64,000 nucleotides of DNA from an uncultured Methanosarcinales archaeon (GTDB taxonomy: Archaea > Nanobdellota > Nanobdellia > Woesearchaeales > JAHWIC01), in contig CAYUUH010000001.1 of the NCBI GenBank assembly GCA_964447855.1, positions 369-64,368 on the forward strand, in the 5' to 3' direction. The position numbers and the translations under genes are program-made. Below, piece after piece: positions 4,825 to 58,246 of the stretch (positions within the stretch are counted from its first letter, which is position 1; every line of letters begins with the position of its first letter). Under the pieces are notes generated by a model that ran no database searches, was not told where the DNA came from, and saw only the letters and a list, made by a program, of their open reading frames with translations.

Positions 4825-4866
4825 AAAATAATTATCAAAATATTTGCTTTTGTCGTTTTGTTGTTT

Positions 4867-4874
4867 TATCTTTG
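4867..4874 (+). promoter_or_regulatory. -7 box TATCTTTG
   Basis: ttttatctttgcgtaaaataaaaatATG. ATG at 4889. Confidence 0.45.
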
Positions 4875-4888
4875 CGTAAAATAAAAAT

Positions 4889-5782: not shown

Positions 5783-5818
5783 TTTGTTTTTGTCAAATCT
5801 TTGTTTTACATTTGCCCT

Positions 5819-6876: not shown

Positions 6877-6968
6877 TGGAGGAATAGTCGGGTCTGATCA
6901 TCCGATGAAAAGGATAAGTGTCGAGTCCTTTCCTCCTTTTTTTCGACACAATACAAAACGACACAAGC

Positions 6969-7484
6969 ATGAAAGAAATTAAGTTAACAAGGGGAATGGT
7001 TGCATTAGTAGATGACCGGGATTATGACTTCTTAATACAATGGAAGTGGCATGCCAATCCTAGTACTACGAATGGATGTTTTTATGCAAGAAGAACAATT
7101 AGGGTGGGAAAGGGGGTTAAGCGTATTTATATGCATAGGCTTATTATGCAGGCAGATAGTGGCATAAAAGTGGATCATATAGATAGGAATGGGCTAAATA
7201 ATCAAAGATCAAACTTAAGATTGTGTACACGCCAACAAAATACCTTTAATACAAATAACCGCAAAAGGAAGTCCCCTTATAAGGGAGTAAGCAAAAAGGA
7301 GGACTATGATAGAAAAAAACCATGGAGAGCGTGTTTTAAGGCAAACGGAAAGCAAATGCTTTTTGGACATTTTGAAACAGAAATAGAGGCTGCCATTTGT
7401 TATGATATAAATGTCTTAAAGTTTAGAGGAGAGTTTGCTGTTTTAAATTTCCCTGAGAGATATAAAAATGGAGTATATGAATAA
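6969..7484 (+). CDS. HNH homing endonuclease with a C-terminal AP2 DNA-binding domain
   Basis: VDHIDRNGLNNQRSNLRLCTRQQN is an HNH motif. YKGVS...WRA...GHFETEIEAAICYD...FRGEFAVLNFP is an AP2 domain. Paralogous to 52755-53225. Start moved to ATG 6969 (MKEIKLTRG), which aligns with the paralog's N-terminus. Confidence 0.8.
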   Translation: MKEIKLTRGMVALVDDRDYDFLIQWKWHANPSTTNGCFYARRTIRVGKGVKRIYMHRLIMQADSGIKVDHIDRNGLNNQRSNLRLCTRQQNTFNTNNRKRKSPYKGVSKKEDYDRKKPWRACFKANGKQMLFGHFETEIEAAICYDINVLKFRGEFAVLNFPERYKNGVYE

Positions 7485-9350: not shown

Positions 9351-11694
9351 TCAATACGAGCATCTATATAAGCCCGCTAAGAAGTGGGATGTTATCAATG
9401 ACGGAGACCCCGATTTAAAGAGTGTCTTTTTTAGCCTACCATCTCCGCCTAACTTAAAACTCATAGATGGCTATGGTTTGCATCCAGACGAACAATACTT
9501 CCGTAGAACTGAAGTACCCAAGAAACTATTGGAGTTAGAAGATAGGGCATTGGGTTTGCTATACGACATACAGAAGGGCAACAACCAGGAGGCTATTCAG
9601 GGATACAAACTGTACCTAAAGTATTGGGAGTTATTTGAGGCAGAGTCAGAACACTTAGAAAAAGAGATCGAATGGCTAAGAAAAACGTGGTGGCACAGGA
9701 CTGAAGGTTATTGGTTCTTTAATGATGGTCAGCCTACGTTCATCCCCCCAGAGTACTACGACTACCTTAACTTCTATTTTATTGCTGAATCAAAGTGCTA
9801 TCCCGAATATAGGGACGACATAAGAAGGAAGAATTGTTTTATTTGGTATTTAATGAATACTACTGAAACCTTTGCCGACATTCATGCCGAAACAGGTGAG
9901 GCACTAAAGGTTGATGGAAAGTATAAGATGTTAGACCTTGGCAGGCGTACCTTTCTGGGGGATATCGAGCCGAAAACGAGGAGGGTTGGTGCATCGCATG
10001 AGGGCATCCACTGTCTACTTGTAGGTGCTATGACACACGCATCACACTATGGGACTATCATATCTCTTGAGGGGCAAAACGCCAAAGCACTCTACGAACA
10101 AAAGTTACTACCCGCATGGGATACCTATCCAATGTGCCTTAAGCCAATGTGGGAAGGGAATAGAAAACCGAGTGTACTTAAGCTATCTGCACCGCCTAAT
10201 GTGTACCACGTTAAGGGACTCAATAGTTCCATATCGGTAACAGAGAGTGCGGGGGAGAAGAAGTCAGAAGGAAAGAGACTTAACAGAATACTTAGTGACG
10301 AAACTGGGAAGACGGAGGCTGCGGATGCGGCAGAGAGGCATCACGTAAACAAACTTACCATGTCAACTGGTATGGGTATTAACATTATTGAAGCTGCTTA
10401 TTGTAAGAATCCTTCAACGGTGGATGAGATGACAGCCGGTGGTATGGCTTACTACAAACTCTGTATGCTCTCTAACTTCTATAAGAGGGTTCCTGCACTA
10501 GGACAAACCCCCGAAGGACTTGCAAGGGTATTTTTACCCGCCTATAGGCGATTAGAGGGCTATATAGACCGTTTTGGCATGTCGGTGGTAGACACACCCA
10601 CAGAAAGACAAAAGAGGCTTACACCCCTATCTGTGTTCGCCATGAGTGGCATGGGCGCAAAGGAGATGCTACAACAGCAAAGGGATACTCTTTTAGCTGA
10701 CGGTTCTCCACAGGCTATGGAAGCGTACCGAAGTTTGAGAAGGAAATCTCCGTTTACTTGGGCTGAGTGTTGGTTAGGAACTAGCGGTAATGTGGGCTAT
10801 AACCTTGAGATAATAGATAAGCGACTTGGTGAGATAAATAGAATGAAGTCATTTAACAAACCGCCATATAAGGTTGGTTATTATTACAGGGAGAAGGGGG
10901 GTCAGCACGACAGAGTGCGATGGGCTAACGACCCGCAAAAGCCTAAATTCAGAGTATCTATGGAACTGCCGGATACCATGACTAACCGGATGACCATGAT
11001 GGAGATTTGGGACTACAGCAAGGGCAAGTTCGTACCTACCTACGCCCCGCTAGAGGGATACAGATTCACCATAGGAGCAGATAGCTTTAGAAATATTAAT
11101 AAGAACGACTATAAGAGCTTTATGAAACTTGGAGCGTCAGCGTCTAACTCTAGACAGTCTGATGGGGGTATCTGCATGATATGGGAGTATGATGATAGCG
11201 TTGATGGTGGTAAGCCCCGCAGAGATTGGCAAAGCGGCAGGGTAGTACTTACTTATAGATGGCGTCCCGCAACATGGGAAGAATACGTTGATGATGTGGT
11301 AATGGCTGCGCAATATTGGGGAGCAATGATATATCCTGAATACAACGTAGAGGCTATTGTAAGAGATATCTACGCTAAGGGCTACGGTGGTTACTTCATC
11401 TACGATATGGATATCCAGACAGGCAAGCCCAAACCAATGCCGGGAGTTTACACCACACCGGGGGTTCTGCAAGAAATGATAACCGACACTAAGGACTATA
11501 TAGAATTTCATGGGCATAACGAAAACCACGATGATCTGCTAAGTGAATTTAAGGGTCTTCAGGGGGTTGAATCGTTCACGCACATGGATTTGCACGTAGC
11601 ATTTGGCATGGCACGAAAGGGCAGTAAGTCCCGCCATAGGGATATAATGATGCAGGGGGATGGTGAGACTATGGTTATTGACGGTTTATTCTAA
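9334..11694 (+). CDS. large phage protein, possible terminase large subunit (unverified)
   Basis: 789 aa. A deviant Walker-A-like TRRVGAS sits near residue 215. Assignment rests on size and position only. Confidence 0.3.
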   Translation: MKHPTNQYEHLYKPAKKWDVINDGDPDLKSVFFSLPSPPNLKLIDGYGLHPDEQYFRRTEVPKKLLELEDRALGLLYDIQKGNNQEAIQGYKLYLKYWELFEAESEHLEKEIEWLRKTWWHRTEGYWFFNDGQPTFIPPEYYDYLNFYFIAESKCYPEYRDDIRRKNCFIWYLMNTTETFADIHAETGEALKVDGKYKMLDLGRRTFLGDIEPKTRRVGASHEGIHCLLVGAMTHASHYGTIISLEGQNAKALYEQKLLPAWDTYPMCLKPMWEGNRKPSVLKLSAPPNVYHVKGLNSSISVTESAGEKKSEGKRLNRILSDETGKTEAADAAERHHVNKLTMSTGMGINIIEAAYCKNPSTVDEMTAGGMAYYKLCMLSNFYKRVPALGQTPEGLARVFLPAYRRLEGYIDRFGMSVVDTPTERQKRLTPLSVFAMSGMGAKEMLQQQRDTLLADGSPQAMEAYRSLRRKSPFTWAECWLGTSGNVGYNLEIIDKRLGEINRMKSFNKPPYKVGYYYREKGGQHDRVRWANDPQKPKFRVSMELPDTMTNRMTMMEIWDYSKGKFVPTYAPLEGYRFTIGADSFRNINKNDYKSFMKLGASASNSRQSDGGICMIWEYDDSVDGGKPRRDWQSGRVVLTYRWRPATWEEYVDDVVMAAQYWGAMIYPEYNVEAIVRDIYAKGYGGYFIYDMDIQTGKPKPMPGVYTTPGVLQEMITDTKDYIEFHGHNENHDDLLSEFKGLQGVESFTHMDLHVAFGMARKGSKSRHRDIMMQGDGETMVIDGLF

Positions 11695-11734
11695 AATACT
11701 TCCTTAAATATTTGTTTTTCTCAAATATCTGTTT

Positions 11735-11742
11735 TATCTTTG
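11735..11742 (+). promoter_or_regulatory. -7 box TATCTTTG at the head of the small-gene block
   Basis: gttttatctttggtt. ATG at 11758. Confidence 0.45.
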
Positions 11743-11757
11743 GTTAAAATTACAGAG

Positions 11758-15486: not shown

Positions 15487-15507
15487 CAGCCATTCCTAAA
15501 TAAGCAT

Positions 15508-15515
15508 TATCTTTG
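15508..15515 (+). promoter_or_regulatory. -7 box TATCTTTG within the conserved TTATCTTTGCATAAATAAAAG
   Basis: ATG at 15536. Confidence 0.5.
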
Positions 15516-15535
15516 CATAAATAAAAGCAAATTAG

Positions 15536-17887
15536 ATGTTGCCAATTTTATCACAGTACAAGGATAATGAATATTTCCGACCCAACGGCAATATAAATCC
15601 ACAAACAAAAGATTCTGAATATCACAAGCGATGGGCACAATACGTGTATTCTTTATGGATGAGGAACGCATGTGCTTGGGGGGTGGATGGTTATAATCGC
15701 TTTGCCGAGCTAAGGGCGTATTCCACGGGTAAACAAGATATTACCAAATATCAGACGTGGCTAAGTTCGGAAGTGAGCACCAACCAAAGTTCTACAATAG
15801 CAGTAGATTCTTTTGATAGCACTCCGCTTTCAAGGATTAGTAAGCGTGAAGGCTGGCTAAATATGCTTTGGGAGAACATTTCACCTTGTCCGATGATCCT
15901 TGAGGCACTCCATGGTCAGTTTGATGAACTAGACTACGACCTATACACAAATGTCATTGACGCCAATAGTAAGGATATTGAGGAGAATGAAGCCTACCAA
16001 AGACTTGTAGAGGGCATATTCAGAGATTGGCAGATAGAATACAAGCAGAAAGCAGGGATACCCGTAGACGAAGATACTTTCTATCCTAAGTCAATACAGG
16101 AGTTTGAAGCATTTAAGGCTCAGGACGGTTTTAAGCTGAACGTGGCACGGTCAATGCAGAAGTTACTGAGATATACCTTTGCGCTAAATCCTGGGGCATG
16201 GGATACCGTAACACGCAAGAAAATTATAGATGACATAATCTGTTTGGGTTATGCCGCCACGAGAGACTACTTTGATGCAGAAGACAGTAAGTTTAAGCAG
16301 AAGTGGATAGACCCCGCAAGGCTCGTAATGCAATACTCTAACGCCTATGACTATAATGATAGTGAGTATGCAGGATACTTTGAGTATTGGACAATATCGA
16401 ACCTTAAGCAGAAACTACCTGATGTAGACCCCGACAAATGGCTAAATCTAGCTAAGTCTTACGCAGGACAATACGGTAACTCTAATTGGGACGAGAAGTA
16501 CTCTAAACTTGACCCATCAACTTATATGTATGGCTATGACGGGTTTAAAGTACCTGTCTTTGAAACAGAATGGATAGACTGTGATAATAAGAAAAGAAAG
16601 TACTATAAGGATCGCTATGGGCGGGATCAAGTTAAGGATGTAGACTACAGCACTAAGGAGAAGACAACCCCGCAGAGCGAGATAAAAAACCTATCTGTAA
16701 GGCTTGTGAGAGAGTGTAAGTGGGTAGTGGGCACAGACTATTGCTTTGATTGGGGAGTGCTTAAGATGGCTTCTAGGAAGAACTATTCCAAGCCACAACT
16801 GACATTCCACGTAGAGCAGTTACTTCAGACCTCAATAGTAGAAAGGCTTATCCCTATTCTTGACCAGATAGAGATAACCTTCTTAAGGTATCAGAACTCA
16901 CTTGCTAAGATGGTAGAGAACGGCTATGCTGTTAATACTTCCATGCTTGGTAATGTGACTTTAGGCGGGAATAAGCTAAAACCGGCAGAGGTTATAAAGC
17001 TCTACAAACAAACAGGCTTCTTCTTGTATCAATACTCAGCAGGCACAGGACAATACACAGGGGGCGCAGCACTACCTATCAGCGAGATACCTGGTGGTAT
17101 GAAAAACCGAGTAGAGGAAACCATAAGAACCCTAGACATGTGGCTTGGTCAGATAAAGACACAGACGGGTATAGATGTTGTTGCCCTTAGTTCTCAGCCA
17201 CAGGCAGTAGATACAAGTGAAGGCGCACAAGAGACCATACAAATCACTCAGAACATATTTAAGACTATTACCAACGCTGTAAAAGAGATTAAGCAGAGTA
17301 CGGGCGAGAGTCTTATGAGAAGGATTCAGATAGGCGTAAGGAACTCTGATGTTATAAGGAAGGCTTATGCGGGCGTGATATCCAAGACAGACATGGATAC
17401 GCTTGTTATGATGGAGAGTGAGGGCGTGCAGTACGGGTTAAGTCTAAAAGCTAAACCCGACAGAAGGGCTAAACTAAGGTTTGAGAATTGGGTTAACCTT
17501 GCTTTACAGAACACGAGAGAGCAGAGACCGGGCATAGACCTTAACGATGCTATCTTCTTCATGAGTCAGTTAGAGAATGGAGCCGACATAAGTGAACTGG
17601 AAAAACAGTTACAATACACTATTGACAAGAACAAGCAGGAGGCAGCCGCCCAAAGCGAACAAATGATAGCATCACAAGGCGAACAGCAGAGACAGACAGA
17701 CGCACAAAAGGCACAGATAGAAATGGCTAAATTGCAAATGGAACAAGAGGGTAAGATAAAAGAAGAACTCATCAGGGGTGATATAAAAAATCAGCAGATG
17801 AATAAAGAGATTGTGAGAGATGTATATGCTTCGCTTGTAGAGAGTGCTAATGCAGAGAATGGTATTAACACTAGCATAAGGAGATAG
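15536..17887 (+). CDS. large structural protein, possible portal protein (unverified)
   Basis: 783 aa with a Q/E-rich helical C-terminus and a strong promoter. Assignment from size and context only. Confidence 0.35.
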   Translation: MLPILSQYKDNEYFRPNGNINPQTKDSEYHKRWAQYVYSLWMRNACAWGVDGYNRFAELRAYSTGKQDITKYQTWLSSEVSTNQSSTIAVDSFDSTPLSRISKREGWLNMLWENISPCPMILEALHGQFDELDYDLYTNVIDANSKDIEENEAYQRLVEGIFRDWQIEYKQKAGIPVDEDTFYPKSIQEFEAFKAQDGFKLNVARSMQKLLRYTFALNPGAWDTVTRKKIIDDIICLGYAATRDYFDAEDSKFKQKWIDPARLVMQYSNAYDYNDSEYAGYFEYWTISNLKQKLPDVDPDKWLNLAKSYAGQYGNSNWDEKYSKLDPSTYMYGYDGFKVPVFETEWIDCDNKKRKYYKDRYGRDQVKDVDYSTKEKTTPQSEIKNLSVRLVRECKWVVGTDYCFDWGVLKMASRKNYSKPQLTFHVEQLLQTSIVERLIPILDQIEITFLRYQNSLAKMVENGYAVNTSMLGNVTLGGNKLKPAEVIKLYKQTGFFLYQYSAGTGQYTGGAALPISEIPGGMKNRVEETIRTLDMWLGQIKTQTGIDVVALSSQPQAVDTSEGAQETIQITQNIFKTITNAVKEIKQSTGESLMRRIQIGVRNSDVIRKAYAGVISKTDMDTLVMMESEGVQYGLSLKAKPDRRAKLRFENWVNLALQNTREQRPGIDLNDAIFFMSQLENGADISELEKQLQYTIDKNKQEAAAQSEQMIASQGEQQRQTDAQKAQIEMAKLQMEQEGKIKEELIRGDIKNQQMNKEIVRDVYASLVESANAENGINTSIRR

Positions 17888-17889: not shown

Positions 17890-19179
17890 ATGCAAAATAG
17901 ACTAAGACATTCAGGAATGGGGTTTGGTTCTGCGCTGACGGTTGCATTGAAGAGTTCGTCATGGACTCCACCAACACCAGACGCATTATTTGACACACGT
18001 ACAGGATTAAGCATAAGTGATAGTATTGGAGGCCAAACTTTATCGATTGGTAATTTCCCTATGACTTTTATGCCGTCAACTGCCGGGACTGACTATTCTT
18101 TGTTTGAGCTTGATATGTTAGCTGAAGCAGAGCCGTCTGATTGGACTATATTAGTTTTAGTAAAACCTCATCCGTTTACAACAGAACAACGCATAGGATA
18201 TTTTCGATACCCTTTTGAGAGAAATTTGACCATACAGTTTTATATGCGTACAACTCCTGCATTAACTCCTAATACTCCATTTACTATACCCACAATTAGT
18301 GCTAAAACATGGACAGAGTGGCAGGCAATAGGATGGGGGCATAATTCGGCTGACAATACTCTAAAGTTAATATGGAATAGTATAATTCAAAGTAAATCTG
18401 ATAATGATGCAGCTTCTGCTAATCCACTGGCAGTTGTATCAATGCAGAACGAAGAGTATGAAAAATTTTATTGTCGTGGTGTATATGCTTTTAATAAGTT
18501 GCTTTCAGATGAAGAAATAGCTAATATAAGATTATATGGGATATTTCCATCAGATAGTAATGTGATTGTTTGCCCATGGTTGGATAGCGAGGATGCTAAA
18601 TTAATGACTAACGGGTATCCATCTGCATTTCAAGATCATTGGGACGGAATAAAAAAATACAAAGGAAAGGGAACTCCTACATCAGCAGTGGAGAGAGGAT
18701 GGTATAATCAAGCAGGTGCAAGACCACCAACTGATCCGTATTCTGCAAGAGATAGTTTATTGACAGGTGCTTATCTTCTTTATAAGGGTTATACAAGACA
18801 GGGAATAAATGTAATCCCCTATAAAACAGATGGTACTAAAGGTTCATGGACTGCCGATGCTGATGATATAGATTATCCTGCAACTTCTGTAATTCATAAC
18901 ATGGCAGATTCATTTATTGATTTTAGCGGGATAACCGATGCTAGTATTAAGGCTTTATTTGATAAGACGAACAGAACTTACTGGAAGGCATCTATTGAGT
19001 CAACTGATTATTATTCGGCGGGTGCTTATCTGTGGCATCCCTCACAGTTAATCAGGGAGTTCATTGAGGTTCATGCTGAAACAGGACACGCTAATCACAT
19101 ATTTTCTTCAATAAGAACATCAAATGGTGTGGTTACTGGTATAAGCGCAATAAGGGTTTATAAAACAAATATTGTATAA
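17890..19179 (+). CDS. carbohydrate-binding-like protein (lectin/LamG-like N-terminal part, discoidin/F5-8-C-like C-terminal part)
   Basis: 429-aa Gly/Thr/Trp-rich β-type composition. C-terminal YLW..SQ...I.V.....I..IR pattern. Confidence 0.35.
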   Translation: MQNRLRHSGMGFGSALTVALKSSSWTPPTPDALFDTRTGLSISDSIGGQTLSIGNFPMTFMPSTAGTDYSLFELDMLAEAEPSDWTILVLVKPHPFTTEQRIGYFRYPFERNLTIQFYMRTTPALTPNTPFTIPTISAKTWTEWQAIGWGHNSADNTLKLIWNSIIQSKSDNDAASANPLAVVSMQNEEYEKFYCRGVYAFNKLLSDEEIANIRLYGIFPSDSNVIVCPWLDSEDAKLMTNGYPSAFQDHWDGIKKYKGKGTPTSAVERGWYNQAGARPPTDPYSARDSLLTGAYLLYKGYTRQGINVIPYKTDGTKGSWTADADDIDYPATSVIHNMADSFIDFSGITDASIKALFDKTNRTYWKASIESTDYYSAGAYLWHPSQLIREFIEVHAETGHANHIFSSIRTSNGVVTGISAIRVYKTNIV

Positions 19180-20362
19180 AATGGCAAATAAAGATACGGT
19201 AGAATCAACATATAATTGCCTTGTGACAAGAAAAAAGGCATACTTATTATTAGTTGGTGGTGATGGTTTGGTGTGTGGTTATCATACAGCAAACGCTAAT
19301 ATGACAGCAGCGGACTTTGCTTTGTATGCCACAGGCGTAGCAACAGATCCAGGAACAGACATTGAGGGCTTTAACATAAACAAAGGCTATAGGTTTGATG
19401 GTCATTGGATGTCGTCGAAACAAATAAATATTTACGAGTTTAAATATCTTAGACCTAATAAATGGAAAAGCAAAATGGGTTCATTTGCAACGGGTGACAC
19501 ATTGCTTGATCCATGTATTCCTTTTTTGGTTGATGGAACAGATAATGGCTACTTTTCTGATGGTACTTTATTTGTTCATCCTTACTGCAATCTTGATACT
19601 TACATAGTAAATGCAGAAGCTACTGACACATGGAGTACAGGCGATACAAATGGATGGCTTTACAGGGCTATGGGGGAATGGGATTATAGTATCAGGTATC
19701 TTGAATTGTTAGGCTATGAAGTTACCGTAATAGGTTTATTGTTCGGGACTATTGCAAACGGTGCTACCGGATCATCTACGCCTGCCGTATATACGGCAGA
19801 AGCAGAAGCAATATTGGCAGCGATAAGAGCTAAATACGGTGCAAATTTACCAGCAGTTTGGGTTACAACTGCATCTCAAACAGGAGCAAGGGCAATAGCT
19901 TATAGAGATGGGATAGTTGCAATATCAGATACTTACCTTTCAGTTTTTGATGATCTTGTTCATTGTAGATCAGCCGTTCCGCCATATTTAAGAACTAAAT
20001 CAGTTGTAAATATGGGCAAGTTTATAGAGTCATGGATAATTAAACATAGATCAGGTTTGAATTTACCAGTTGTTTCAGATGTAGCAATAACTGGTACTTT
20101 GGAGGTAGGTGAAGTCATTGCTCCATCCTATACGTTTACAGGAGGTACGGAAGGAGACAGTAATTATATACTTTTAAGAGCTGATAATAATGCAGGTTTA
20201 AACGAGACGTTTGTGCAAACATATCAGAGAGGTGAAACGATTACTCTTGGTGCTATATCAGGAAAGTACATAAAGTTTATAGTTACTCCGGTACAGACAA
20301 CTAATCCAAAGATAGGAGTAGCTGTTAGAAATGCAAATTGGGAGGGGCCAGTTGGTGCTTAG
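19172..20362 (+). CDS. hypothetical structural or accessory protein with Ig-like C-terminal repeats
   Basis: 396 aa. Confidence 0.35.
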   Translation: MYKMANKDTVESTYNCLVTRKKAYLLLVGGDGLVCGYHTANANMTAADFALYATGVATDPGTDIEGFNINKGYRFDGHWMSSKQINIYEFKYLRPNKWKSKMGSFATGDTLLDPCIPFLVDGTDNGYFSDGTLFVHPYCNLDTYIVNAEATDTWSTGDTNGWLYRAMGEWDYSIRYLELLGYEVTVIGLLFGTIANGATGSSTPAVYTAEAEAILAAIRAKYGANLPAVWVTTASQTGARAIAYRDGIVAISDTYLSVFDDLVHCRSAVPPYLRTKSVVNMGKFIESWIIKHRSGLNLPVVSDVAITGTLEVGEVIAPSYTFTGGTEGDSNYILLRADNNAGLNETFVQTYQRGETITLGAISGKYIKFIVTPVQTTNPKIGVAVRNANWEGPVGA

Positions 20363-20437
20363 TTGCTATGGAGATCAACTCACCTAAAATAGTTGTTAAA
20401 ATATTTGGATAATTGAAATATATGTTTTTACTTTGCT

Positions 20438-21361
20438 GTGAAATCAAACAGTAAAGCAATGAAAACATTCAGTGAAATCCTAGTACCGTTTCTTTCTGAG
20501 AAGGAAATCCAGCTAAAGAAGAAAAGCCTAAACGCATATAAGAATCAAACTAAAGTCTTTTGCGAGTGGCTGAACAGTCAAGGAAAACTTGATATCTCAA
20601 TTTGCGACATCAAGGAAGAAGAAGTATCGCAGTTCTTTCTTTACCTTGCGAGGGACAAAGACCTTGACCGTCCAACCTGTCAGAAGTACTACATAAGCAT
20701 TAAGTCAGTATTTTACTATGCTAAGAAGCGCAAGGAGATAACAGAACTGCCGTTTGACTTAGTGGTGTTCCCGTCAAAGAAAAGGGACTGCTCGGCACAG
20801 CTAATCCCGCAAGAGGCTATGAAGCTATTGTTTGAAGACATAAAAGAGAACGACTATCAACTCTTTCTAGCTTGCATGATTGAGTACTACTGCTTCATAA
20901 GGCCAGGTAATGAGATGAGAAACCTTAAGCCCACAAACTTTGATTTAAAGAGTGGCACGATACGCATTGACGCCTCGATAGCTAAGAATAAGAGAGCAAG
21001 AACAGTTACCATGCCCACACAGTTAATAGAGTACTGTAAAGAGTATGGAATAGATAAGGAGAACAGTAACCGCTATGTCTTTGGATGCAATAGGTACTTC
21101 GATACAAAGCCGGTATCAGAGAACATGCTAAGGTATAGATTTAATAGATTCAGGGATAAGCATAATATAAGCAAGGGGGTTAAGCTCTATAGTTTTAAGC
21201 ACCAAGGATGCACCACGCTTCACCAAACAAGGCTAGTATCTACCTTCGACCTGATGACACAGCTTGGGCATAGCAATCTTACAAGCACACAACACTACCT
21301 AAAGAAGGTGGCGGGTAATATTAACAGTGAGATAAGGAATAATTTTCCAAGTCCTATATAA
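20438..21361 (+). CDS. tyrosine recombinase / phage integrase family (XerC/D-like size)
   Basis: N-terminal SAM-like domain. AKNKRARTVTMP box, LGHSNLTSTQHYLKKV C-terminal box with the catalytic Tyr. The HxxR box reads KHQGC, so the second catalytic Arg appears to be absent. Confidence 0.6.
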   Translation: MKSNSKAMKTFSEILVPFLSEKEIQLKKKSLNAYKNQTKVFCEWLNSQGKLDISICDIKEEEVSQFFLYLARDKDLDRPTCQKYYISIKSVFYYAKKRKEITELPFDLVVFPSKKRDCSAQLIPQEAMKLLFEDIKENDYQLFLACMIEYYCFIRPGNEMRNLKPTNFDLKSGTIRIDASIAKNKRARTVTMPTQLIEYCKEYGIDKENSNRYVFGCNRYFDTKPVSENMLRYRFNRFRDKHNISKGVKLYSFKHQGCTTLHQTRLVSTFDLMTQLGHSNLTSTQHYLKKVAGNINSEIRNNFPSPI

Positions 21362-21365
21362 TTCT

Positions 21366-21373
21366 TATCTTTG
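21366..21373 (+). promoter_or_regulatory. -7 box within TTATCTTTGCATAAAATAAG
   Basis: 17 nt upstream of ATG 21390. Confidence 0.5.
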
Positions 21374-21389
21374 CATAAAATAAGTTATT

Positions 21390-21688: not shown

Positions 21689-21712
21689 TAAAACGATATT
21701 AAATATTATATT

Positions 21713-21720
21713 TATCTTTG
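21713..21720 (+). promoter_or_regulatory. -7 box within TTTATCTTTGCATAAAATAAG
   Basis: Upstream of ATG 21752. Confidence 0.5.
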
Positions 21721-21751
21721 CATAAAATAAGAGAAAGAAAAATTATAGATT

Positions 21752-22901: not shown

Positions 22902-24353
22902 ATGTCAACAATAACACTCGGAACTATTAGTTCCACAACTAACAACCAGCGTTACGGATATTCATTTGATAGTATCTATAACACCATGCTGAAGCCACAG
23001 ATTTATGGCGACTATATCAAGTATTATGGCAAAGGAGTAGGACTCCTTGAAATGGCTTACCTCGCAGGGACAACTGTTAATATAGCAGGTTCGTCCAAGA
23101 CTGTATGGGAAGAAGGTTCACTGACCAAACTCGTTAAGTTGAATGGTGCTATCGCAGCCGCAGCCGCAGGTGCAGATATTACCTTCTCCTTGGATGCTGC
23201 TGAATTTGATGCTAACCACGCATCTTATCTTAACACCCACGATCAGATTGTTATCCCTGCTGAGTATATTGAAGAAGGTGGCGTTCCCGCTACAATTCCT
23301 CATCTCTACCAGGTAACAGGAAACGATGGTGGAGTAGATGCCGCTAGAGTTTATACAGCAAGACCTCTCTTAGTTACTACTGAACTTGCAGTTGCAGTTC
23401 CCGATGATACCGAACTTATGGTAACAGGTGGTAACTACGCCCTCGAAAGCGCAGGAGGTTATGTTAAGTCAAGCGGATGGTATTCAAGAACCTTCTACAA
23501 CTCAATCAAAAAACACGATTGGGCTATCGGAGGTGGAACACAGAGCAACCAGAGGTACTACGAAGAACTGCGTGGCGGTGGAACAGGTATCCTTTCCAAA
23601 CTGACCATGGAAGCTGACTACTGGCTTGATAAATACATCAACGATGAGATATTCCTTGGCTTGGGTGTTACCAACACAACCCTGACCATGAACAACAGGA
23701 ACTCCGTTGCAGTACCCGTAGCAGGAACAGTGGGTGTGCTTCGCCACCTAGAGCAGAGAGCTATGAGGCAGTACTACACAGCCGCATATCAGATGTCAGA
23801 CTTTGACGATATCAAAGACCTTCTTCAGTCACAGGGCGTAACAGAGAGAAACGTAGCTTTCCTCATGGGTTCAAGCCTCTACAAGCAGGTAGAAAACAGC
23901 GGTCTTGACTTCATCAAGGAATTTAGTGGTGGAACAGACCTCATGAAGACCCTCGGTGATATCAACGTAGCTTTTAGGGCAATCAATAAGAACGGTGTTT
24001 ACACCATGTTCAAAGAACTGCCTTCACTGAGCGACCCAACAGCCTACGGAGCAGAAGCCTTCAATGACTACTTCAAGGATTGGGGTATGATTGTACCGGA
24101 GGTTGATGTAACCGTCAAAGGTAGTCTTGAGTCACCTGAGTCATTCAAACTTAGGAACCTGACAATGGGATTCAAGTCATATAACGGTGAGAACCGCACA
24201 AGGGTAGTTAAAGACATACCGAGTATGGCAGGACAGGGGAATGTTGCCGTCGACAATTACGACGACAGCCGCGGCTCGATGCTTAGTGAGTTCAGTCTCA
24301 TATTCAATAAGGTTAACCAGTGTATCATGGTTCAGAACGATAATATCTTATGA
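22902..24353 (+). CDS. putative major capsid protein
   Basis: 483 aa directly after the scaffold-like gene, followed by a strong GC-stem terminator. Inferred from context. Confidence 0.45.
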   Translation: MSTITLGTISSTTNNQRYGYSFDSIYNTMLKPQIYGDYIKYYGKGVGLLEMAYLAGTTVNIAGSSKTVWEEGSLTKLVKLNGAIAAAAAGADITFSLDAAEFDANHASYLNTHDQIVIPAEYIEEGGVPATIPHLYQVTGNDGGVDAARVYTARPLLVTTELAVAVPDDTELMVTGGNYALESAGGYVKSSGWYSRTFYNSIKKHDWAIGGGTQSNQRYYEELRGGGTGILSKLTMEADYWLDKYINDEIFLGLGVTNTTLTMNNRNSVAVPVAGTVGVLRHLEQRAMRQYYTAAYQMSDFDDIKDLLQSQGVTERNVAFLMGSSLYKQVENSGLDFIKEFSGGTDLMKTLGDINVAFRAINKNGVYTMFKELPSLSDPTAYGAEAFNDYFKDWGMIVPEVDVTVKGSLESPESFKLRNLTMGFKSYNGENRTRVVKDIPSMAGQGNVAVDNYDDSRGSMLSEFSLIFNKVNQCIMVQNDNIL

Positions 24354-24377
24354 GTTTAATACTTAGATAGTTACAAA

Positions 24378-24408
24378 GGGCGGTTAGAAATATCCGCCCT
24401 TTTATTTT
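24378..24408 (+). terminator. intrinsic terminator (GGGCGG/CCGCCC stem followed by TTTTATTTTG)
   Basis: agggcggttagaaatatccgcccttttattttg. Confidence 0.6.
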
Positions 24409-24462: not shown

Positions 24463-24744
24463 ATGTCAAAACAACAAGATGCATTTAAAAGGTGTGATGA
24501 GATAAGCGATGAGCTTGAAGTTTTTTTTAATAGCTTATCTAAAAAGAATAAAAGAGAAATAGGAAAACTGATCTGCGGTCATATAGCTACGCTTTCGGCA
24601 GACCTTGACAAAAATATCTTTGATCCACTAAAGGTATTAAGTGAGGCGCAGAAAGACCTACAAGCTATCATAGCGGAAGAAGTAGATGGTCAGATAGAGA
24701 AGGAATTACTAGATTATGTTAATAAAACTAAGGATCAAAAATAA
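24463..24744 (+). CDS. hypothetical protein
   Basis: 93-aa ORF. Confidence 0.4.
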   Translation: MSKQQDAFKRCDEISDELEVFFNSLSKKNKREIGKLICGHIATLSADLDKNIFDPLKVLSEAQKDLQAIIAEEVDGQIEKELLDYVNKTKDQK

Positions 24745-24748
24745 TTCT

Positions 24749-24756
24749 TATCTTTG
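24749..24756 (+). promoter_or_regulatory. -7 box TATCTTTG
   Basis: attcttatctttgcactg. ATG at 24784. Confidence 0.45.
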
Positions 24757-24783
24757 CACTGAAAAACAAAAACAAGAAAGAAA

Positions 24784-25920: not shown

Positions 25921-25941
25921 CAGACATTCATAAATAAGAGT

Positions 25942-25949
25942 TATCTTTG
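25942..25949 (+). promoter_or_regulatory. -7 box TATCTTTG
   Basis: gagttatctttgcattg. Confidence 0.45.
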
Positions 25950-26032
25950 CATTGGGATAGCTAAGGTTGATCTCTTAGCGATAAGGACATGCCAACATCC
26001 TTCCCCATCTTTTTAGTTGGCGTAATTAAATT

Positions 26033-26920
26033 GTGGCAAATATGAGAATTGGATTCGTTTATTTGATAATGTCTATTGTTAGACCAGATAGGTGTTATGT
26101 GGGCAGTTCTGTAGATTTGAGAGATAGGTGGAGTGGTCATAGGAGGAAACTTGCATTACAACAACATCATTCAGTAAAACTACAGAGGCATTTTAATAAG
26201 CATGGGTTGGATGATTTAATCTTTATAGTTATTGAAAAGATAGATGTTTTTAATCTTAATGATTTAATAAGGGTAGAGCAGTTTTATATTGATTTATTAA
26301 AACCTTACTTCAATATGTCTCCTACTGCGGGGAGTAATAAAAATTTGGAGCTTACACAAGAGCAGAGAGATAAGATGAACAAAAAACCGGTGTCTTTAGA
26401 GACAAGAGAAAAACAAAGACAGGCTAAATTAGGTAAAAAAAGAGGTTCTCCATCAGAAGAAACCAGAAGAAAAATGAGGGAAAGTAATCTAGGGAGGAAA
26501 GTAAGCCCTGAGACCATTTTAAAACTATCTGAGTCTCATAAGGGCAAGAAACCAACAAAAGAACAGATAGAGAAAAACAGACTTTCTAATACGGGGAAGA
26601 AACAGAAAATAGAGTCTGTCGCAAAAACACTGCTAACAAAAGAAGGGATAGAGCATACTGATGAAAATATAAATATAATGATATTGCGTATTTTAGAAAA
26701 AAGGGAGAGTAAAAAGAATAAAAGAAGTGCAGAGGAAATAAATAAAAGGAAAAGTGAGATATTAAAAAAATATTTCATAGAACATCCAGAGGCTCGTGAT
26801 CATTTAAGCAAGATACAGAAGGGGAGAAAAATGTCCGATAAGGCTATTGAAAACATGAAAATAGGACAAAAGACAAGGAGGGATAAGGAAAGGCTAAATA
26901 GGGAAAATGGTGTTATTTAA
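26033..26920 (+). CDS. GIY-YIG homing endonuclease with tandem NUMOD3-like DNA-binding repeats
   Basis: GFVYLI...CYVGSSVDLRDRWSGH is the GIY-YIG signature. Repeated T.E.R.K...G motifs follow. Paralog of 34305-35000. Confidence 0.75.
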   Translation: MANMRIGFVYLIMSIVRPDRCYVGSSVDLRDRWSGHRRKLALQQHHSVKLQRHFNKHGLDDLIFIVIEKIDVFNLNDLIRVEQFYIDLLKPYFNMSPTAGSNKNLELTQEQRDKMNKKPVSLETREKQRQAKLGKKRGSPSEETRRKMRESNLGRKVSPETILKLSESHKGKKPTKEQIEKNRLSNTGKKQKIESVAKTLLTKEGIEHTDENINIMILRILEKRESKKNKRSAEEINKRKSEILKKYFIEHPEARDHLSKIQKGRKMSDKAIENMKIGQKTRRDKERLNRENGVI

Positions 26921-29029: not shown

Positions 29030-32000
29030 ATGAGCAATATAATTGACCACCTTCCGCTAACTGACTTCGGGTTAGATTTTGATCAAGCTCCAAGGTATAT
29101 TTCCAAAGGAGATTCAAGATATAATTTGAATGTTCTTAAAGGAGAAGACTCTTACTTTGGCGAGCTCACTAATCTAAAGGGTAACAGGAAGGTCACGTAC
29201 GAACTTGGTGATTCAAATGCTTACTTTGTTGCGTGGAGTTGTTATGATCCACTGACCCGCTATGTGTACGCATACATATTTTCACAGCCCTATGATGTAA
29301 GCGGTTCTGGTGATTATGAGTACGATAATAGGTTTATTCGCTTCGGGGAAGATGATGAAATAATTACTACTCTTTTTTACGACACAAAGAACTATTTCGG
29401 AGTAGACCCTAATATAAGAGTTAAGGATTCATTTGTAATAGGAGACTGGCTATTCTATAACCCACAGACAAGCGAACCAAAGATTATAGACCTTACGAGG
29501 ATTTATAACTATACGACCTATGCGGCTTATGATGCTACACTTACTTATACCTATGGACAGAGAGTTACTTACTTTGGTGGGCTGTTCCTTGCAGATGAGG
29601 CAGTAGCGATAGGCGAAGACCCTGTAAACTACGACAGTAAGTGGACTCGCATAGGAGATAGTTACCAGTTTGGTACAGACATAGAGTTTGACAGTGAGTT
29701 CAGGTATGCTTTTAATCAGATAAAACACATCCCTGTTTACCGTCCTATATGTGCTTACGCTACGGATGCCGATAAGAACGCAAATAACGTGCGTGGTAAG
29801 CTCTTTAGGTTCTCGCACAGGTATAAGTACTTTGACAATAGTTATTCACGCTACGGGGCTTATTCTGACGTTACATTGCCACAATATGACGAGTATTATA
29901 ATGGCGAAGTACCAGGAGACCTTGATACATTTAACTGTATTGATGTAAAGATACCCCTTCACTCAGCAGCCCTCGTAAAAGAGATAGAGATAATATTTCA
30001 GGAGACAGGTGGAGATTGGAAGCAAGCTAAGATAATAAACAGACAGGATATTACTTTACTTGACCAGCTTTATTATACTTATAGATTCTATAATACAGAT
30101 TCAGCCTTTATTCAGATAGATGATGACCATTTCACTGAGCCCTATGATGCACTTCCGAGGTTTGCAAATTCAATGGAGATCATCAATAAGAATATCTTGG
30201 CTTTCGGTGGCGTCACAGAAGGGTTTTATAATCTTGATAAGAACGATATAGATGTTACTCTCACACCTGAAATGGAAACAATATCTATCTCAGAATCACA
30301 ACAAACAGGCGGAAGGCGAAGGGATAATATTGCGGAGGGAGATTGGGTTTTAACACCAACAAGTACGGGTTGGCAGATTACGCTTACACCTAATTCATGG
30401 TTCACTGGTGGCGGTTGGGCTCTCGGAGACGTCTATGTATTAACCTTTAACGGCAAGAGCGTTACCTATACATTACAGGCAGCAGACGTTCTTAACTTAG
30501 CGGGTTTTTGTGCAGCTATAGGTGGTGTATTTAGCACAAACTTCCCAACGGTTAATTCAGGATATGGAACAACTACGGTTTATGTATTATCGGAAAATAC
30601 AGATGGTGTTCAGACTCCGATTAATATTAGCATATCAACATTATATGAACCTAGTGGTGTATCGGAGGTAGCTCTTACAAAGGCTACCGGATTTAAGACA
30701 GGTGCGTGGCATCCATTCTGTATATTCTACTATGATGAGGCTATGCGTAGGTGGGATGCACAGACAAGTAAGGATCATCCCGATGGTATAGTACCTTACT
30801 CAGCAGACGGGACAACAGTTTACATTCCTATGTTTGGAGAGTATTCACCGAATGATGGGCTATTGAATCATAGGTGGATTATTAATTGGAGTTTAAATCA
30901 TCTTCCCCCTAGCGAGGCTAAGTGGTGGAGGTGGGGTTATGCAGGTAACGCACTATGCTCACAATTTGTTCAGTATATCGTAGAAGACATCCAAGATGAA
31001 TCTCCATGGACTAAGTTAGATATTACCCCTCTTCAAACCTTAAAAACAACAACTGAGGGTACATGGAATCAATTTCCGCAGTCAATAATAGAACCTTATC
31101 AGTGGCAAAAGGGAGATAGGGTAAGGGTAATAACAGAGGCAGCTTCAGCAAATGATATAGGTGCTGTTATAGATGGTGTTTATGACTATGAAATTTTAAA
31201 GTATGATGATACTACGGTAGAGGGTGAGTATTGGGTATATGTTCAGGACTTTGATTATGCTGCTATTAGTGCAGGGGTACAAACCTTAGTTGAAATATAC
31301 ACTCCTAAAAAGACAGATGTTGCAAGAGACTTCTACGAGTTTGGTGAGTTAATGCCAATAATCAGGGATGCAGATAATGTTTTAGTACATGGCTGCGGTG
31401 CTATAGGAACACAGAACCAAGATACGACCACAGGAGACCCCGTTACAGGCGTTTTTACGGCAGGAGACGTGTATCATATACTCAGGACGCCATCTTATGC
31501 TATTGACACCGTAGAGGGCTATTTCCATGAGTCACAGTGGTACTCTGATTTCTATGCTAGTGATGATTGGGATAAAGGCAGACCTGGGGTAGAGACAAAC
31601 TTTGGCGAAAGGTATCTTAACATAGTAAGACACTCAAAACAGTACTTACAAAATACTTTGATTAATGGTCTTTCAACCTTTTGGGGCGATACCGACTATA
31701 AGGAACTGAATGATGTCTTTGGTGATATTTTGAGGATAATTGAGAACGGAGACACGCTAAAGGTCTATCAGAGGAAGAAGCCAAGCTCTATCTTGATTGG
31801 TAGGACTGAGTATGTGGATATGGAGGGAAATCCTAATATAGTTCAGACCAGCGAAAGAGTACTTGGTGCAATAAGATATTCAACTACAAACTACGGTACA
31901 GAGTTCCCTGAGAGTATAACAAAGAATAACAGGTACGTCTACGGCTTTGACATCTATAACGGCGTCATGTGGAGAGATTCGGCTAATGGAATTTTCCCTA

Positions 32001-33883
32001 TAAGTGGTAAGTACGAGTCAGCAGACGGTGGTAACTACAAGATGGAGACTTACTTCAAACAGAAGGCTAAGGACTTACTTGTATCGGGCATTAACGGTGT
32101 AGATGTAGAAACTGTTTGGGACGAGAGGCATAAGAACCTATATGTTATCTTTAAAGACTTAGTCACAGAGGCTAACGATGAGGCTATCATGTTCCATGAG
32201 CCATCTAACAGGTGGATATGCTTCACTAACATGGATCAGACACCCGAAGAGGGTTGGACTCAGATGATTCAGTTAGAATGGTCTATACTGCAAGGGTTTA
32301 CAAGTGGTTATACTGTAGATTTTAATGAGGATACTTATTTCTATGAGTTTGGCATCACAGCACCACCCGATGTAAGGAGAATTGAGGAGGAGCAAGAATT
32401 AGGAGTTGCTGTACTTGAACCCACCATAGTTATAGACTGTGATGTATCAGCAGATTTACTTACCATTAGTACAACGCCTATGCCATGGGATGCTATACTT
32501 ACTCCTTACATAAGTGCATCTCCTCCTAATATGGCATTTACGGCAGCAGAGAGTGGCTTGGCAAGCAAACAAGATGTCACTGTCTTATGTAGTCCTTCTA
32601 CTTGTACTATCAGTGCAGTACCCTTGGATGCTGGTGTACCTTGGCTGACTATACTTGATGTTAGTGGTAACTCATTATCAGTAGGTAGTGTTATAACAAG
32701 CGGTCAGGTACTTCGGGTTTATCCTACTAATATTAGTTTAGGCGGTGCTCTATCGGGTAGTTTAACTTTTACCAATACCTATAGTAATTCTGACTCTGTT
32801 TCAATAACAAGGGCAGCAGCACTTTCTAGTCCTACGGTTAGGGTTCTCGCAAATGGTTCTGCATCTAATGTATTGACAGATGTAATGGGTAGTGGTATAT
32901 GCTCACCTGGCGCAACAACCGTTGATGTTATCTTTACTTGTGATAATACAGAGCTATCGGGTGCATCAGCATATATGGTGTATGCTTCTGCAATTATAAA
33001 GGACAGTCAGTATGGTTCTACTGTTGGAACAGGATCGGGATATGGAGCAGCAACAGATATTGCAGGGGGAACTATAACTATTGATAATTTAAGTGCAGCA
33101 GTACTGAGTGGTTATTGGGTTTATGTATATCTCATTAGCTATGGTTCAGGTTCGGGAGTTGCTGATTTAACTGTCAGTGCAGACCTTAATACTCTGTCTA
33201 TAGCACCTAACGCCCTTACACCACTACAACCTACTGTCTTTATAACAGTTGTTAGTCCTAGTGCGCCAGCACTTCAGTGGGCAGCAGCAGATACGACCAC
33301 ACAGAACTTCTCTATAGATACGGGAGATGCTGTTCAGACAAGGGTATCTTATGCACCAACTTGGATAACAATACTTGATAGTGGAGGCAATGACTTAAAA
33401 GGAGGTCATTACATTATAGATGAAGAGGTTTGTACAATGAACCCAACCAATGCTAACTTAGGCGGGCAACTAGACGATACCGTTACCTTTGTTAATGAGA
33501 TGGGTGATACCAATACCATTACAGTAAGACATCTCGCAGCAGGGGCGGGGGTAGTGCCTATAACTCTTTCAATTAGCGATACCGCAGGGGATGGGATTAC
33601 AGATGACACTACCGATTTAGCCTTTAAAACGGGCGTAAGTAGACAAGCTACCTTAACAGACGCTACGGCACTCATAGATTTAAGGGCTACTTTTGACAGC
33701 CCTCTATACGGAGAAGGTGGCTATTATCGGGTTTATTGGTATGCTACAAAAGATAGTATCTTTGCAGGACGAGGAGACTTCCCATATTGGGATGAATTAG
33801 AAGTGAATGTACAACTAGTGTTAGATGCAGTAGCAAGTACGTCAGATACGATAGTAATTTATTTTGCAGGTAATTATATTTAA
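29030..33883 (+). CDS. large fibre or tail-associated structural protein
   Basis: 1617 aa, Gly/Ser/Thr/Tyr-rich with β-repeat character. Sits within the tail module. Confidence 0.5.
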   Translation: MSNIIDHLPLTDFGLDFDQAPRYISKGDSRYNLNVLKGEDSYFGELTNLKGNRKVTYELGDSNAYFVAWSCYDPLTRYVYAYIFSQPYDVSGSGDYEYDNRFIRFGEDDEIITTLFYDTKNYFGVDPNIRVKDSFVIGDWLFYNPQTSEPKIIDLTRIYNYTTYAAYDATLTYTYGQRVTYFGGLFLADEAVAIGEDPVNYDSKWTRIGDSYQFGTDIEFDSEFRYAFNQIKHIPVYRPICAYATDADKNANNVRGKLFRFSHRYKYFDNSYSRYGAYSDVTLPQYDEYYNGEVPGDLDTFNCIDVKIPLHSAALVKEIEIIFQETGGDWKQAKIINRQDITLLDQLYYTYRFYNTDSAFIQIDDDHFTEPYDALPRFANSMEIINKNILAFGGVTEGFYNLDKNDIDVTLTPEMETISISESQQTGGRRRDNIAEGDWVLTPTSTGWQITLTPNSWFTGGGWALGDVYVLTFNGKSVTYTLQAADVLNLAGFCAAIGGVFSTNFPTVNSGYGTTTVYVLSENTDGVQTPINISISTLYEPSGVSEVALTKATGFKTGAWHPFCIFYYDEAMRRWDAQTSKDHPDGIVPYSADGTTVYIPMFGEYSPNDGLLNHRWIINWSLNHLPPSEAKWWRWGYAGNALCSQFVQYIVEDIQDESPWTKLDITPLQTLKTTTEGTWNQFPQSIIEPYQWQKGDRVRVITEAASANDIGAVIDGVYDYEILKYDDTTVEGEYWVYVQDFDYAAISAGVQTLVEIYTPKKTDVARDFYEFGELMPIIRDADNVLVHGCGAIGTQNQDTTTGDPVTGVFTAGDVYHILRTPSYAIDTVEGYFHESQWYSDFYASDDWDKGRPGVETNFGERYLNIVRHSKQYLQNTLINGLSTFWGDTDYKELNDVFGDILRIIENGDTLKVYQRKKPSSILIGRTEYVDMEGNPNIVQTSERVLGAIRYSTTNYGTEFPESITKNNRYVYGFDIYNGVMWRDSANGIFPISGKYESADGGNYKMETYFKQKAKDLLVSGINGVDVETVWDERHKNLYVIFKDLVTEANDEAIMFHEPSNRWICFTNMDQTPEEGWTQMIQLEWSILQGFTSGYTVDFNEDTYFYEFGITAPPDVRRIEEEQELGVAVLEPTIVIDCDVSADLLTISTTPMPWDAILTPYISASPPNMAFTAAESGLASKQDVTVLCSPSTCTISAVPLDAGVPWLTILDVSGNSLSVGSVITSGQVLRVYPTNISLGGALSGSLTFTNTYSNSDSVSITRAAALSSPTVRVLANGSASNVLTDVMGSGICSPGATTVDVIFTCDNTELSGASAYMVYASAIIKDSQYGSTVGTGSGYGAATDIAGGTITIDNLSAAVLSGYWVYVYLISYGSGSGVADLTVSADLNTLSIAPNALTPLQPTVFITVVSPSAPALQWAAADTTTQNFSIDTGDAVQTRVSYAPTWITILDSGGNDLKGGHYIIDEEVCTMNPTNANLGGQLDDTVTFVNEMGDTNTITVRHLAAGAGVVPITLSISDTAGDGITDDTTDLAFKTGVSRQATLTDATALIDLRATFDSPLYGEGGYYRVYWYATKDSIFAGRGDFPYWDELEVNVQLVLDAVASTSDTIVIYFAGNYI

Positions 33884-45642: not shown

Positions 45643-45646
45643 GAGT

Positions 45647-45654
45647 TATCTTTG
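45647..45654 (+). promoter_or_regulatory. -7 box TATCTTTG
   Basis: gagttatctttgtaaac. ATG at 45683. Confidence 0.45.
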
Positions 45655-45682
45655 TAAACATAAACGCAAATAGCAATAAGCA

Positions 45683-58245: not shown

Positions 58246-58246
58246 T

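Follow-up and report, generated by a model that had tools for sequence, protein, structure and literature searches.

A conserved two-domain tyrosine recombinase with a Tyr/Lys box II beside the receptor-binding-like genes of a large, virulent-looking Bacteroidota phage

Phage P1 encodes Cre, which acts at one phage-genome site close to its own gene, provides a fixed crossover point and resolves or circularizes genomes, while the phage invertases Gin and Cin act at receptor-binding genes. Large Bacteroidota phages, namely crAss-like phages and related ones, have generally been reported to carry no integrase, and how they persist is debated. According to previous studies, the simple integrase of phage Brujita integrates its phage, and the RKHRH pentad was described as essentially strictly conserved (PMC8138268). 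A conserved arm-less recombinase located at host-range genes in environmental relatives of such phages would offer a testable handle on site-specific recombination in such phages, and it bears on whether recombination there serves maintenance, lysogeny or module exchange.

The gene analyzed here lies in a window of 64,000 nucleotides, which is the whole stretch of DNA that was analyzed, and it may be described as a large (contig of ~73 kb), virulent-looking phage of Bacteroidota, distantly crAss-like. Its large terminase and portal proteins match PHROG families, while no nucleotide match to GenBank phages was found. Membership of Crassvirales is not asserted, because the large terminase is only ~23% identical to those of Flavobacterium 'elemo' and Cellulophaga podophages and crAss features, such as the ring-protein domain (PF25710), occur in some homologue contexts only. 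The phage also carries sugar-biosynthesis genes, and no repressor was present among the proteins covered by a partial scan. The only tRNA found is tRNA-Met (1146-1217), 19 kb from the recombinase gene (REC). The location of REC in the structural block, as proposed in the initial annotation, was borne out: the portal gene (15536-17887; PHROG portal, E=1e-45) is followed by two genes and then by REC. Of the proposed position between portal and capsid genes, the portal side was confirmed, but the 483-aa gene found after REC at the expected capsid position (22902-24353) matched no family and nothing in GenBank phages. Similarly, two of the four suggested homing endonucleases were confirmed as HNH/homing-endonuclease genes (6918-7484 and 26033-26920).

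The open reading frame runs on the + strand from a GTG at 20438 to 21361, and translation from its conserved start, the ATG at 20459, yields 300 aa. This start was chosen because the identical database protein P0001 has 300 residues, and because a stop codon lies immediately 5' of the ATG in the closest relative, L054. The protein matched Pfam PF00589 Phage_integrase (E=4.9e-15, 56.2 bits, cutoff 27.1), the SAM-like domain PF13102 (E=7e-6) and PHROG_1 integrase (E=1.4e-31). An AlphaFold2 model made with 24 homologues reached a mean pLDDT of 92 and showed a two-domain fold, whose top PDB matches (E values down to 7e-10) were Tn1549 Int, the integron integrase VchIntIA, XerA, the lambda Int core, Brujita Int, XerH and Cre. 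The score above the PF00589 cutoff and the two-domain fold place REC in the tyrosine recombinase superfamily, and both the XerC/D-like size and the N-terminal SAM-like domain noted earlier were thus upheld. Judged from these matches and its conservation, REC is an intact, selected, 'simple' two-domain tyrosine recombinase that is probably active. A profile search against 1.84 billion representative proteins returned 607 clusters at E<=1e-30, and the full-length members among its top 150 served as 131 representatives. The features of the gene are as follows.

20459-21361, + strand: recombinase gene (REC), with a core-binding (SAM-like) and a catalytic domain and without an arm-binding N-terminal domain, by HMM and model
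20900-20914, + strand: box I, with R148 (20900-20902) and E152 (20912-20914), in 100% of the 131 representatives
20984-20986, + strand: K176, the catalytic Lys of the beta-hairpin, between model strands E167-170 and E181-184, in 100% of the 131
21188-21202, + strand: Y244-S-F-K247-H248 as a non-canonical box II (canonically H-x-x-R-H), with both Y and K in 100% of the 131
21269-21298, + strand: H271 (21269-21271) and the nucleophile Y280 (21296-21298), in LGHSNLTSTQHY, in 98% and 99% of the representatives

Among the described systems, Cre/loxP of phage P1 resembles REC in being built on a phage-encoded simple two-domain tyrosine recombinase. However, REC is only 12-13% identical to Cre, has R-K-Y-K-H-Y in place of the canonical residues, and occupies a position tied to receptor-binding genes; moreover, no 13-8-13 palindrome like that of loxP was found, and the site and reaction proposed for REC below are putative. 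A Cre-like or dimer-resolution role is compatible with the data and close to the reading that we favor. Like the Brujita-type simple integrases, REC is phage-encoded, has ~300 aa and lacks an arm-binding domain, but no integrated REC copies were seen, the two belong to unrelated sequence clades and the Brujita pentad is canonical. XerC, XerD and XerA share its size and domain layout and gave the best named HMM matches, although the scores stay below the NCBIfam equivalog cutoffs (XerA, 68.4 vs 220 bits; XerC, 64.2 vs 335; XerD, 54.7 vs 330); unlike the Xer dimer resolvases, REC is phage-borne rather than chromosomal and its box II is non-canonical. As with the integron integrase IntI, represented by VchIntIA among the top five fold matches, a simple tyrosine recombinase here lies beside a candidate site and a highly variable gene. 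In contrast to integrons, REC is co-oriented with the variable gene, each genome has one site, no attC-like structured sites occur, and the integron integrase model TIGR02249 gave 28.8 bits against a cutoff of 265. The heterobivalent, lambda-type arm-binding domain is absent, as the protein begins at the core-binding domain, and with respect to DNA invertases of the FimB/E and Rci type, the FimB-like NCBIfam model was not matched. The nearest resemblance in sequence is to the ~400-aa Y-x-x-K integrases of Bacteroidota (XB1A, P. gingivalis and RAP44), which have the same R-K-Y-K-H-Y residues and the same NFPxP C-terminal tail, but REC differs from them in having neither the N-terminal ~100 residues nor a tRNA/tmRNA neighbor nor a chromosomal location at a prophage end. 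REC carries the signature and the profile similarity by which the Bacteroidota Y-x-x-K integrase clade is defined here.

The active site of REC departs from the canonical one in box II. In three PDB alignments and in MAFFT alignments with E. coli XerD, Y244-S-F-K247-H248 falls under XerD H244-V-L-R247-H248, so that His II is Tyr (Y244), Arg II is Lys (K247) and the canonical H-x-x-R box is absent. An atypical HxxR box with one catalytic Arg missing had been suspected in the initial annotation; both points proved real, with the register corrected, as 'KHQGC' begins at the Arg II position. The remaining positions, R148 (Arg I), E152, K176, H271 (His III) and Y280 (nucleophile), are intact and align with XerD R148, E151, K172, H270 and Y279, respectively. 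Scoring of the catalytic residues against XerD, which had been suggested as a check on degeneracy, gave a divided answer: R148, K176, H271 and Y280 stand, while His II and Arg II are non-canonical.

The R-K-Y-K-(H)-H-Y signature is present in all 131 representatives (R148, E152, K176, Y244 and K247, 100%; H271, 98%; Y280, 99%), and no further residue, including any Arg, reaches 90% conservation among them. The R/K/Y/K/H/Y residues also occur in 44/44 genome loci examined, the seven positions from R148 to Y280 are invariant in 24 close homologues, and the dN/dS between REC and its 86%-identical relative L054 is 0.08. By this conservation, the Y-x-x-K box is a family trait of the REC clade and not decay, and REC belongs to a large clade of Bacteroidota phage integrases whose normal active site is R-K-Y-K-H-Y rather than R-K-H-R-H-Y. 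Since all catalytic positions, the nucleophile Tyr included, are 98-100% conserved, catalysis by REC is favored. A natural integrase with Arg II replaced by Lys, Pal_Y-Int_1, was reported to integrate efficiently (PMC12884075), and a Lys at the Arg II position is plausible because the role of Arg II was found to be electrostatic (PMC2747268). Within a limited literature search, a swap of both His II and Arg II across a whole clade seems to be unreported. A whole clade with Tyr and Lys in place of His II and Arg II that looks active would be of interest for enzymology, as a natural test of Arg II function. The IntKX subgroup, considered as a possibly Lys-containing group, is irrelevant here, being a group of gammaproteobacterial ICEs.

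Relatives of REC occur in long and short forms. The long forms have ~400 aa, are 22-40% identical to REC and carry ~100 extra N-terminal residues, which would have an arm-binding role, though no Pfam family of arm-binding domains matched them. A co-oriented tRNA or tmRNA gene immediately precedes the integrase gene in 15 of the 19 long-form loci, and its end is 109-328 nt from the integrase gene in the nine loci measured. The long forms in IMG/VR are found ~1 kb or less from the ends of prophage contigs of 35-50 kb, others are on chromosomal contigs (the largest of 5.98 Mb), and that of B. xylanisolvens XB1A adjoins prophage lysis and tail genes. The Y-x-x-K box is also common to the P. gingivalis prophage integrases and the integrase of Riemerella phage RAP44. 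On every genomic criterion, the long forms look like working integrases.

The short forms, to which REC belongs, have 298-316 aa and are at least 42% identical to the REC protein, and more than 200 relatives of similar length were found. They are monophyletic and nested among the long forms, with moderate confidence, in a neighbor-joining tree rooted with XerD and made without bootstrap; the short-form subclade has presumably shed the ~100 N-terminal residues that its ~400-aa relatives carry in addition. None of the 26 short-form loci adjoins a tRNA or tmRNA gene, as against the 15/19 long-form loci, and with the only tRNA of the window at 19 kb, the earlier suggestion of a temperate phage using the nearby tRNA finds no support. 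Short forms were found only in phage contigs, the longest of 102.8 kb. Integrated copies, which had been proposed as a check, were sought: no short form lies on a contig above 103 kb, and no recognizable host genes were seen in the flanks of ~50 loci on more than 45 contigs, in a search that was not exhaustive. One short-form genome of ~85.3 kb was assembled in differing permutations across samples. GenBank phages contain no short-form homologue, their best protein matches being long-form integrases with 22-31% identity. With high confidence, the arm-less short-form subclade is confined to non-integrated phage genomes. Such an arm-less, receptor-gene-linked subclade in large phages appears to be undescribed, according to a limited literature search. 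As a general matter, the absence of integrated copies from assemblies does not amount to proof against lysogeny.

The DNA immediately upstream of REC contains three further features.

17890-20362, + strand: a pair of receptor-binding-like genes, the first of 429 aa and the second of 396 aa with an Ig-like AIR9 domain (IG_AIR9 match), forming a swappable segment
20357-20393, + strand: diverged copy of a conserved element overlapping the upstream gene's stop codon (TTAGTTGCTATGGAGATCAACTCACCTAAAAT; R1 model 10.9 bits, E=0.06), a candidate recombination site or regulatory element
20386-20443, + strand: promoter-like region of REC, with a TTTG box and then an imperfect TAnnTTTG-like box (TTACTTTG), a putative function

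In 13 of 14 contexts, the gene directly 5' of the short form is glycan-binding or glycan-cleaving and receptor-binding-like, with alpha-L-fucosidase, GH43/GH130-like, GDSL esterase, CBM_4_9, Fib_succ_major or fn3/LRR domains, and with the Ig-like AIR9 domain in the window. The position of short forms within the genome varies, as they lie between portal and head genes (window and L054), among tail-fiber genes (L004), at a strand switch (L001) or ahead of replication genes (L056). What is constant, with high confidence, is a position just downstream of a variable receptor-binding gene. The terminase, portal and p377 proteins of the window are 95-96% identical to those of L054, and the 2.5 kb between portal and REC is unrelated in the two, except for the first 28 codons. 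The same pattern was found in the pairs L058/L060 and L135/L143, where the variable segment reaches to the recombinase-proximal end of the gene, and in all three related pairs it ends at the conserved element. Swaps of receptor-binding genes at gene boundaries are also common in phages without any recombinase. The promoter-like region of REC is nearly identical in L054, while the DNA farther upstream is unrelated; its boxes in both genomes are of Bacteroidota type, and in the window 4825-4882 and 11693-11750 are further members of its repeat family, D3.

The conserved element has ~30 nt and, in short-form loci, lies across the stop codon of the gene upstream or just after it. It consists of box A (TTAGTGTAGTnGC or TAGTGGCTATG) and box B (TCAATATAACTAAAT or CAACGAAAAT), with 22±1 nt from the start of one box to that of the other in most copies. 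A sequence-only model of the element (R1), with the window copy in its training set, gave 24 matches scoring 12-24.5 bits across 321 kb of short-form loci; every one is upstream of REC and on the recombinase strand, and four of these 24 came from outside the training set. In 767 kb of long-form loci, no match exceeded 11.1 bits. The copy in the window is the best R1 match there, yet it is about equal to the best background match (10.9 vs 11.1 bits) and not significant alone. Most short-form loci have one copy and a few have two in tandem. No clear dyad of the 11-6-11 type was present in the element, and a reading as an RNA structure was dropped after RNAalifold found no consensus pairs. A simple attP x attB scheme to explain the element's left and right flank types was also rejected, since the observed combinations do not fit it. 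A second R1 match in the window (24281-24310; 9.1 bits, E=0.25) falls within the coding part of the 483-aa gene and is probably due to chance.

Copies of the element were also found apart from the recombinase. An exact-pattern scan of IMG/VR returned eight matches, none with a recombinase gene nearby. One of them (L210) is within a coding region and probably a chance match; of the seven others, six are found where a large upstream ORF terminates, at its stop codon, and for the remaining one (L209) the upstream ORF was not found. Some of these loci keep traces of REC: L211 has a scar of 11 N-terminal and 13 C-terminal codons, and the first seven codons are retained in L212 and in L215, the latter being a recombinase-less relative of L004. 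REC is thus dispensable, because relatives without it exist. In L138, a 10-codon remnant of one recombinase type lies between two copies of the element with a common 10-nt core (GTAGTTGCGA), and after the two copies comes the complete gene of another type; L137 and L136 have a single hybrid copy that corresponds to the pair in L138. These tandem and hybrid copies and the REC remnants are indirect hints that fit recurrent recombination at or near the element, as a pattern that does not itself prove catalysis by REC. The element also precedes small membrane (lysis-like) genes in many loci. It could be a promoter, a boundary signal or another REC-independent signal for the downstream module, since it occurs where receptor-binding genes end in seven phage contigs without REC and before lysis-like genes in many loci.

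The reading that we favor, tentatively and at somewhat less than an even chance, is that REC is an active, Cre/lox-like recombinase working on phage DNA at the boundary of a host-range module. The short form would no longer insert the phage into the host chromosome; instead it would act, as Cre does on lox, on phage DNA at a single site beside its own gene, for which the conserved ~30-nt element overlapping the upstream stop codon is the candidate. Genomes would be resolved or joined by recombination between copies of the phage genome or between relatives that infect the same cell, and the host-range module would have a fixed crossover point at its boundary, with Lys247 supplying the positive charge that normally comes from Arg II. 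Rather doubtful is the bolder proposal that REC and the stop-codon element form a programmed crossover point, a 'host-range integron' with a Tyr/Lys active site. If it were true, large Bacteroidota phages would exchange receptor-binding cassettes by site-specific recombination between co-infecting genomes.

An unlikely alternative, which nevertheless carries appreciable weight, is that REC is a lysogenic integrase inserting the phage at a host attB through an attP beside its gene, as Brujita Int does. The descent of REC from tRNA/tmRNA-targeting integrases agrees with this, as do the candidate site upstream of the gene, where the attachment site lies in long-form prophages, the presence of Brujita Int among the fold matches and the sugar-biosynthesis genes, which could act in surface conversion. 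However, the element is unlike the 3' end of a tRNA, the arm-binding region for control of directionality is absent, and the genomic evidence given above points elsewhere: no tRNA/tmRNA neighbor in 26 loci, no contig above 103 kb or host flank, one identical genome assembled in different permutations, and no repressor in the partial scan. An improbable one is that REC and its site are a selfish cassette that inserts at the 3' end of receptor-binding genes in diverse phages, in the manner of homing endonuclease genes, which this phage already carries. It would account for the presence or absence of REC with the site kept (L215 vs L004, L212 vs L154), the scars in L211, L212 and L215, the case of L138, where one REC type has given way to another, and the similar position in very different genome backbones. 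Yet there is no second, flanking copy of the site in the window or in most loci, the left and right flanks combine in ways that do not suit a simple attP x attB reaction, and strong purifying selection over deep divergence is also expected of a gene useful to the phage.

That REC serves as a DNA-binding regulator derived from a recombinase, or acts as an enzyme on host DNA such as host invertible promoters rather than on phage DNA, seems improbable too. Bacteroidota hosts do have many switches controlled by tyrosine recombinases (PMC8042965), but the protein has no link to host loci, and 98-100% conservation of the catalytic positions, including the Tyr nucleophile, speaks for catalysis. Two possibilities from the initial annotation fared worse still. 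An invertase for a phase-variable switch within the phage is largely refuted and highly improbable: REC adjoins receptor-binding genes, where phage invertases act, but the window has no inverted copy of the element as a partner site, no inverted repeats around a promoter or gene segment and no opposed gene fragments (minus-strand ORFs here have at most 57 aa), and related contigs have the same orientation. A degenerate, inactive integrase remnant, which the non-canonical Arg II and His II and the absent N-terminal domain might suggest, has a negligible chance, being refuted by conservation: the gene is full-length with a confidently folded model, dN/dS is 0.08, relatives of similar length exceed 200, and the Y-x-x-K box is present in 131/131 representatives and shared with integrases at tRNA/tmRNA genes, besides the active Arg II to Lys integrase (PMC12884075). 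True remnants look different, as the scar of 11 + 13 codons in L211 illustrates.

Finally, other possible sites were searched for in the window. A 14-nt exact direct repeat around REC (ACAGTAAAGCAATG, at 20448 and 21472) was rejected as chance, as it is not conserved in the 86%-identical L054. A search for lox/dif-like sites (11-nt inverted arms, spacer of 5-9 nt, at most one mismatch) gave five matches in the window, no more than chance at 2-9 in shuffled sequence, and none near REC. Inverted repeats, which had been proposed as a check around neighboring promoters, were sought as well, and no long inverted repeats able to bracket an invertible segment were found in the window. The inverted pairs reported in the window are promoter motifs in opposite orientation, and one of the lox/dif-type matches is a terminator-like hairpin 3' of the gene at 22902-24353.

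The genes between the portal gene and the recombinase gene (300 aa, 20459-21361, plus strand) in the window are fully replaced in the closest relative, L054 (17890-20362 in the window, 6975-9819 in L054), despite 95-96% identity of the terminase and portal between the two. The replaced segments have only their first 28 residues in common (MQNRLRHSG..SWTPP), and an anchor kept while the distal part is swapped is a classic pattern of receptor-binding proteins. Behind its portal gene, L054 additionally encodes a GIY-YIG endonuclease.

At the stop codon of the receptor-binding-like gene lies a conserved element of about 30 nt, beside which several related loci retain scars of a deleted recombinase gene:
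L211, 6442-6590: scar with 11 N-terminal codons fused to 13 C-terminal codons
L212 and L215, reverse strand: scars adjoining the element
In L212 and L215, the first seven recombinase codons are kept; a small ORF of unrelated sequence comes next, along with another copy of the element core. A comparison of L138 (3419-3505) with L159, L137 and L136 showed that the 10-nt core GTAGTTGCGA is present in L138 as two direct copies, one on either side of a 10-codon recombinase remnant; this remnant is of an MGIF-type gene, and a complete MNIL-type gene follows both cores. L137 and L136 possess a single hybrid copy of the element, exactly as a deletion between the two cores of L138 predicts. Second copies of the element were found at the following loci, in addition to L212 and L215:
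L135, 1840-1856
L138, 3481-3505
L143, 3277
The second copies read ATG AGT AGT (A/T)GC (A/G)AA TAA, which is either a conserved putative mini-ORF, with the product MSS(S/C)(K/E)* and the next start codon immediately after it, or simply a DNA motif.

Just 3' of the short-form recombinases (L008, L058, L060, L066 and L092), genes for small membrane or lipoprotein-like proteins are often present, including phrog_35767 and weak 'hemolysin' and lipoprotein matches, and their recurrence at this position suggests a lysis cassette. The window differs, as a proline-rich 80-aa ORF and head genes follow its recombinase. Many long-form integrases of about 400 aa (class L loci L009, L012, L014, L020, L043, L167 and L176) lie directly 3' of the tmRNA gene ssrA, and others are located at tRNA-Pro, His, Ala or Leu. 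A favoured attachment locus of the Bacteroidota prophage group carrying them appears to be tmRNA.

Two promoter-like classes, the second being longer and having an upstream TTTG box, and a hairpin were identified in the window:
15498-15526, 21356-21384, 21703-21731, 24739-24767, 25934-25952 and 45639-45657: TTATCTTTGCATAAAATAAG with TAnnTTTG, repeated upstream of structural genes
Ahead of 4890, 5801, 11740 and the recombinase gene: longer TTTG-box class
Ahead of several minus-strand genes (289, 50966, 55710): longer TTTG-box class
24375-24402: G+C-rich hairpin AAAGGGCGGTT-AGAAAT-ATCCGCCCTTT with a run of T behind it, just 3' of the 483-aa gene at the expected capsid position
The TTATCTTTGCATAAAATAAG motif is probably the late promoter class, and the hairpin is a likely intrinsic terminator.

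The window also possesses the following genes:
56992-63083, minus strand, and 5801-6859, plus strand: clustered sugar-nucleotide and polysaccharide biosynthesis genes
38977-45642: giant ORF of 2221 aa, late block
29030-33883: giant ORF of 1617 aa, late block
The sugar cluster encodes a radical SAM/B12-binding enzyme, UDP-GlcNAc 2-epimerase and further nucleotide-sugar epimerases, as well as a Polysacc_synt_2 dehydratase and a glycosyltransferase of family 2, which might be involved in DNA or virion modification, or in altering the host surface. No family was matched by the 1617-aa protein in a Pfam scan. By size, both giant ORFs may recall the giant virion proteins of crAss-like phages.
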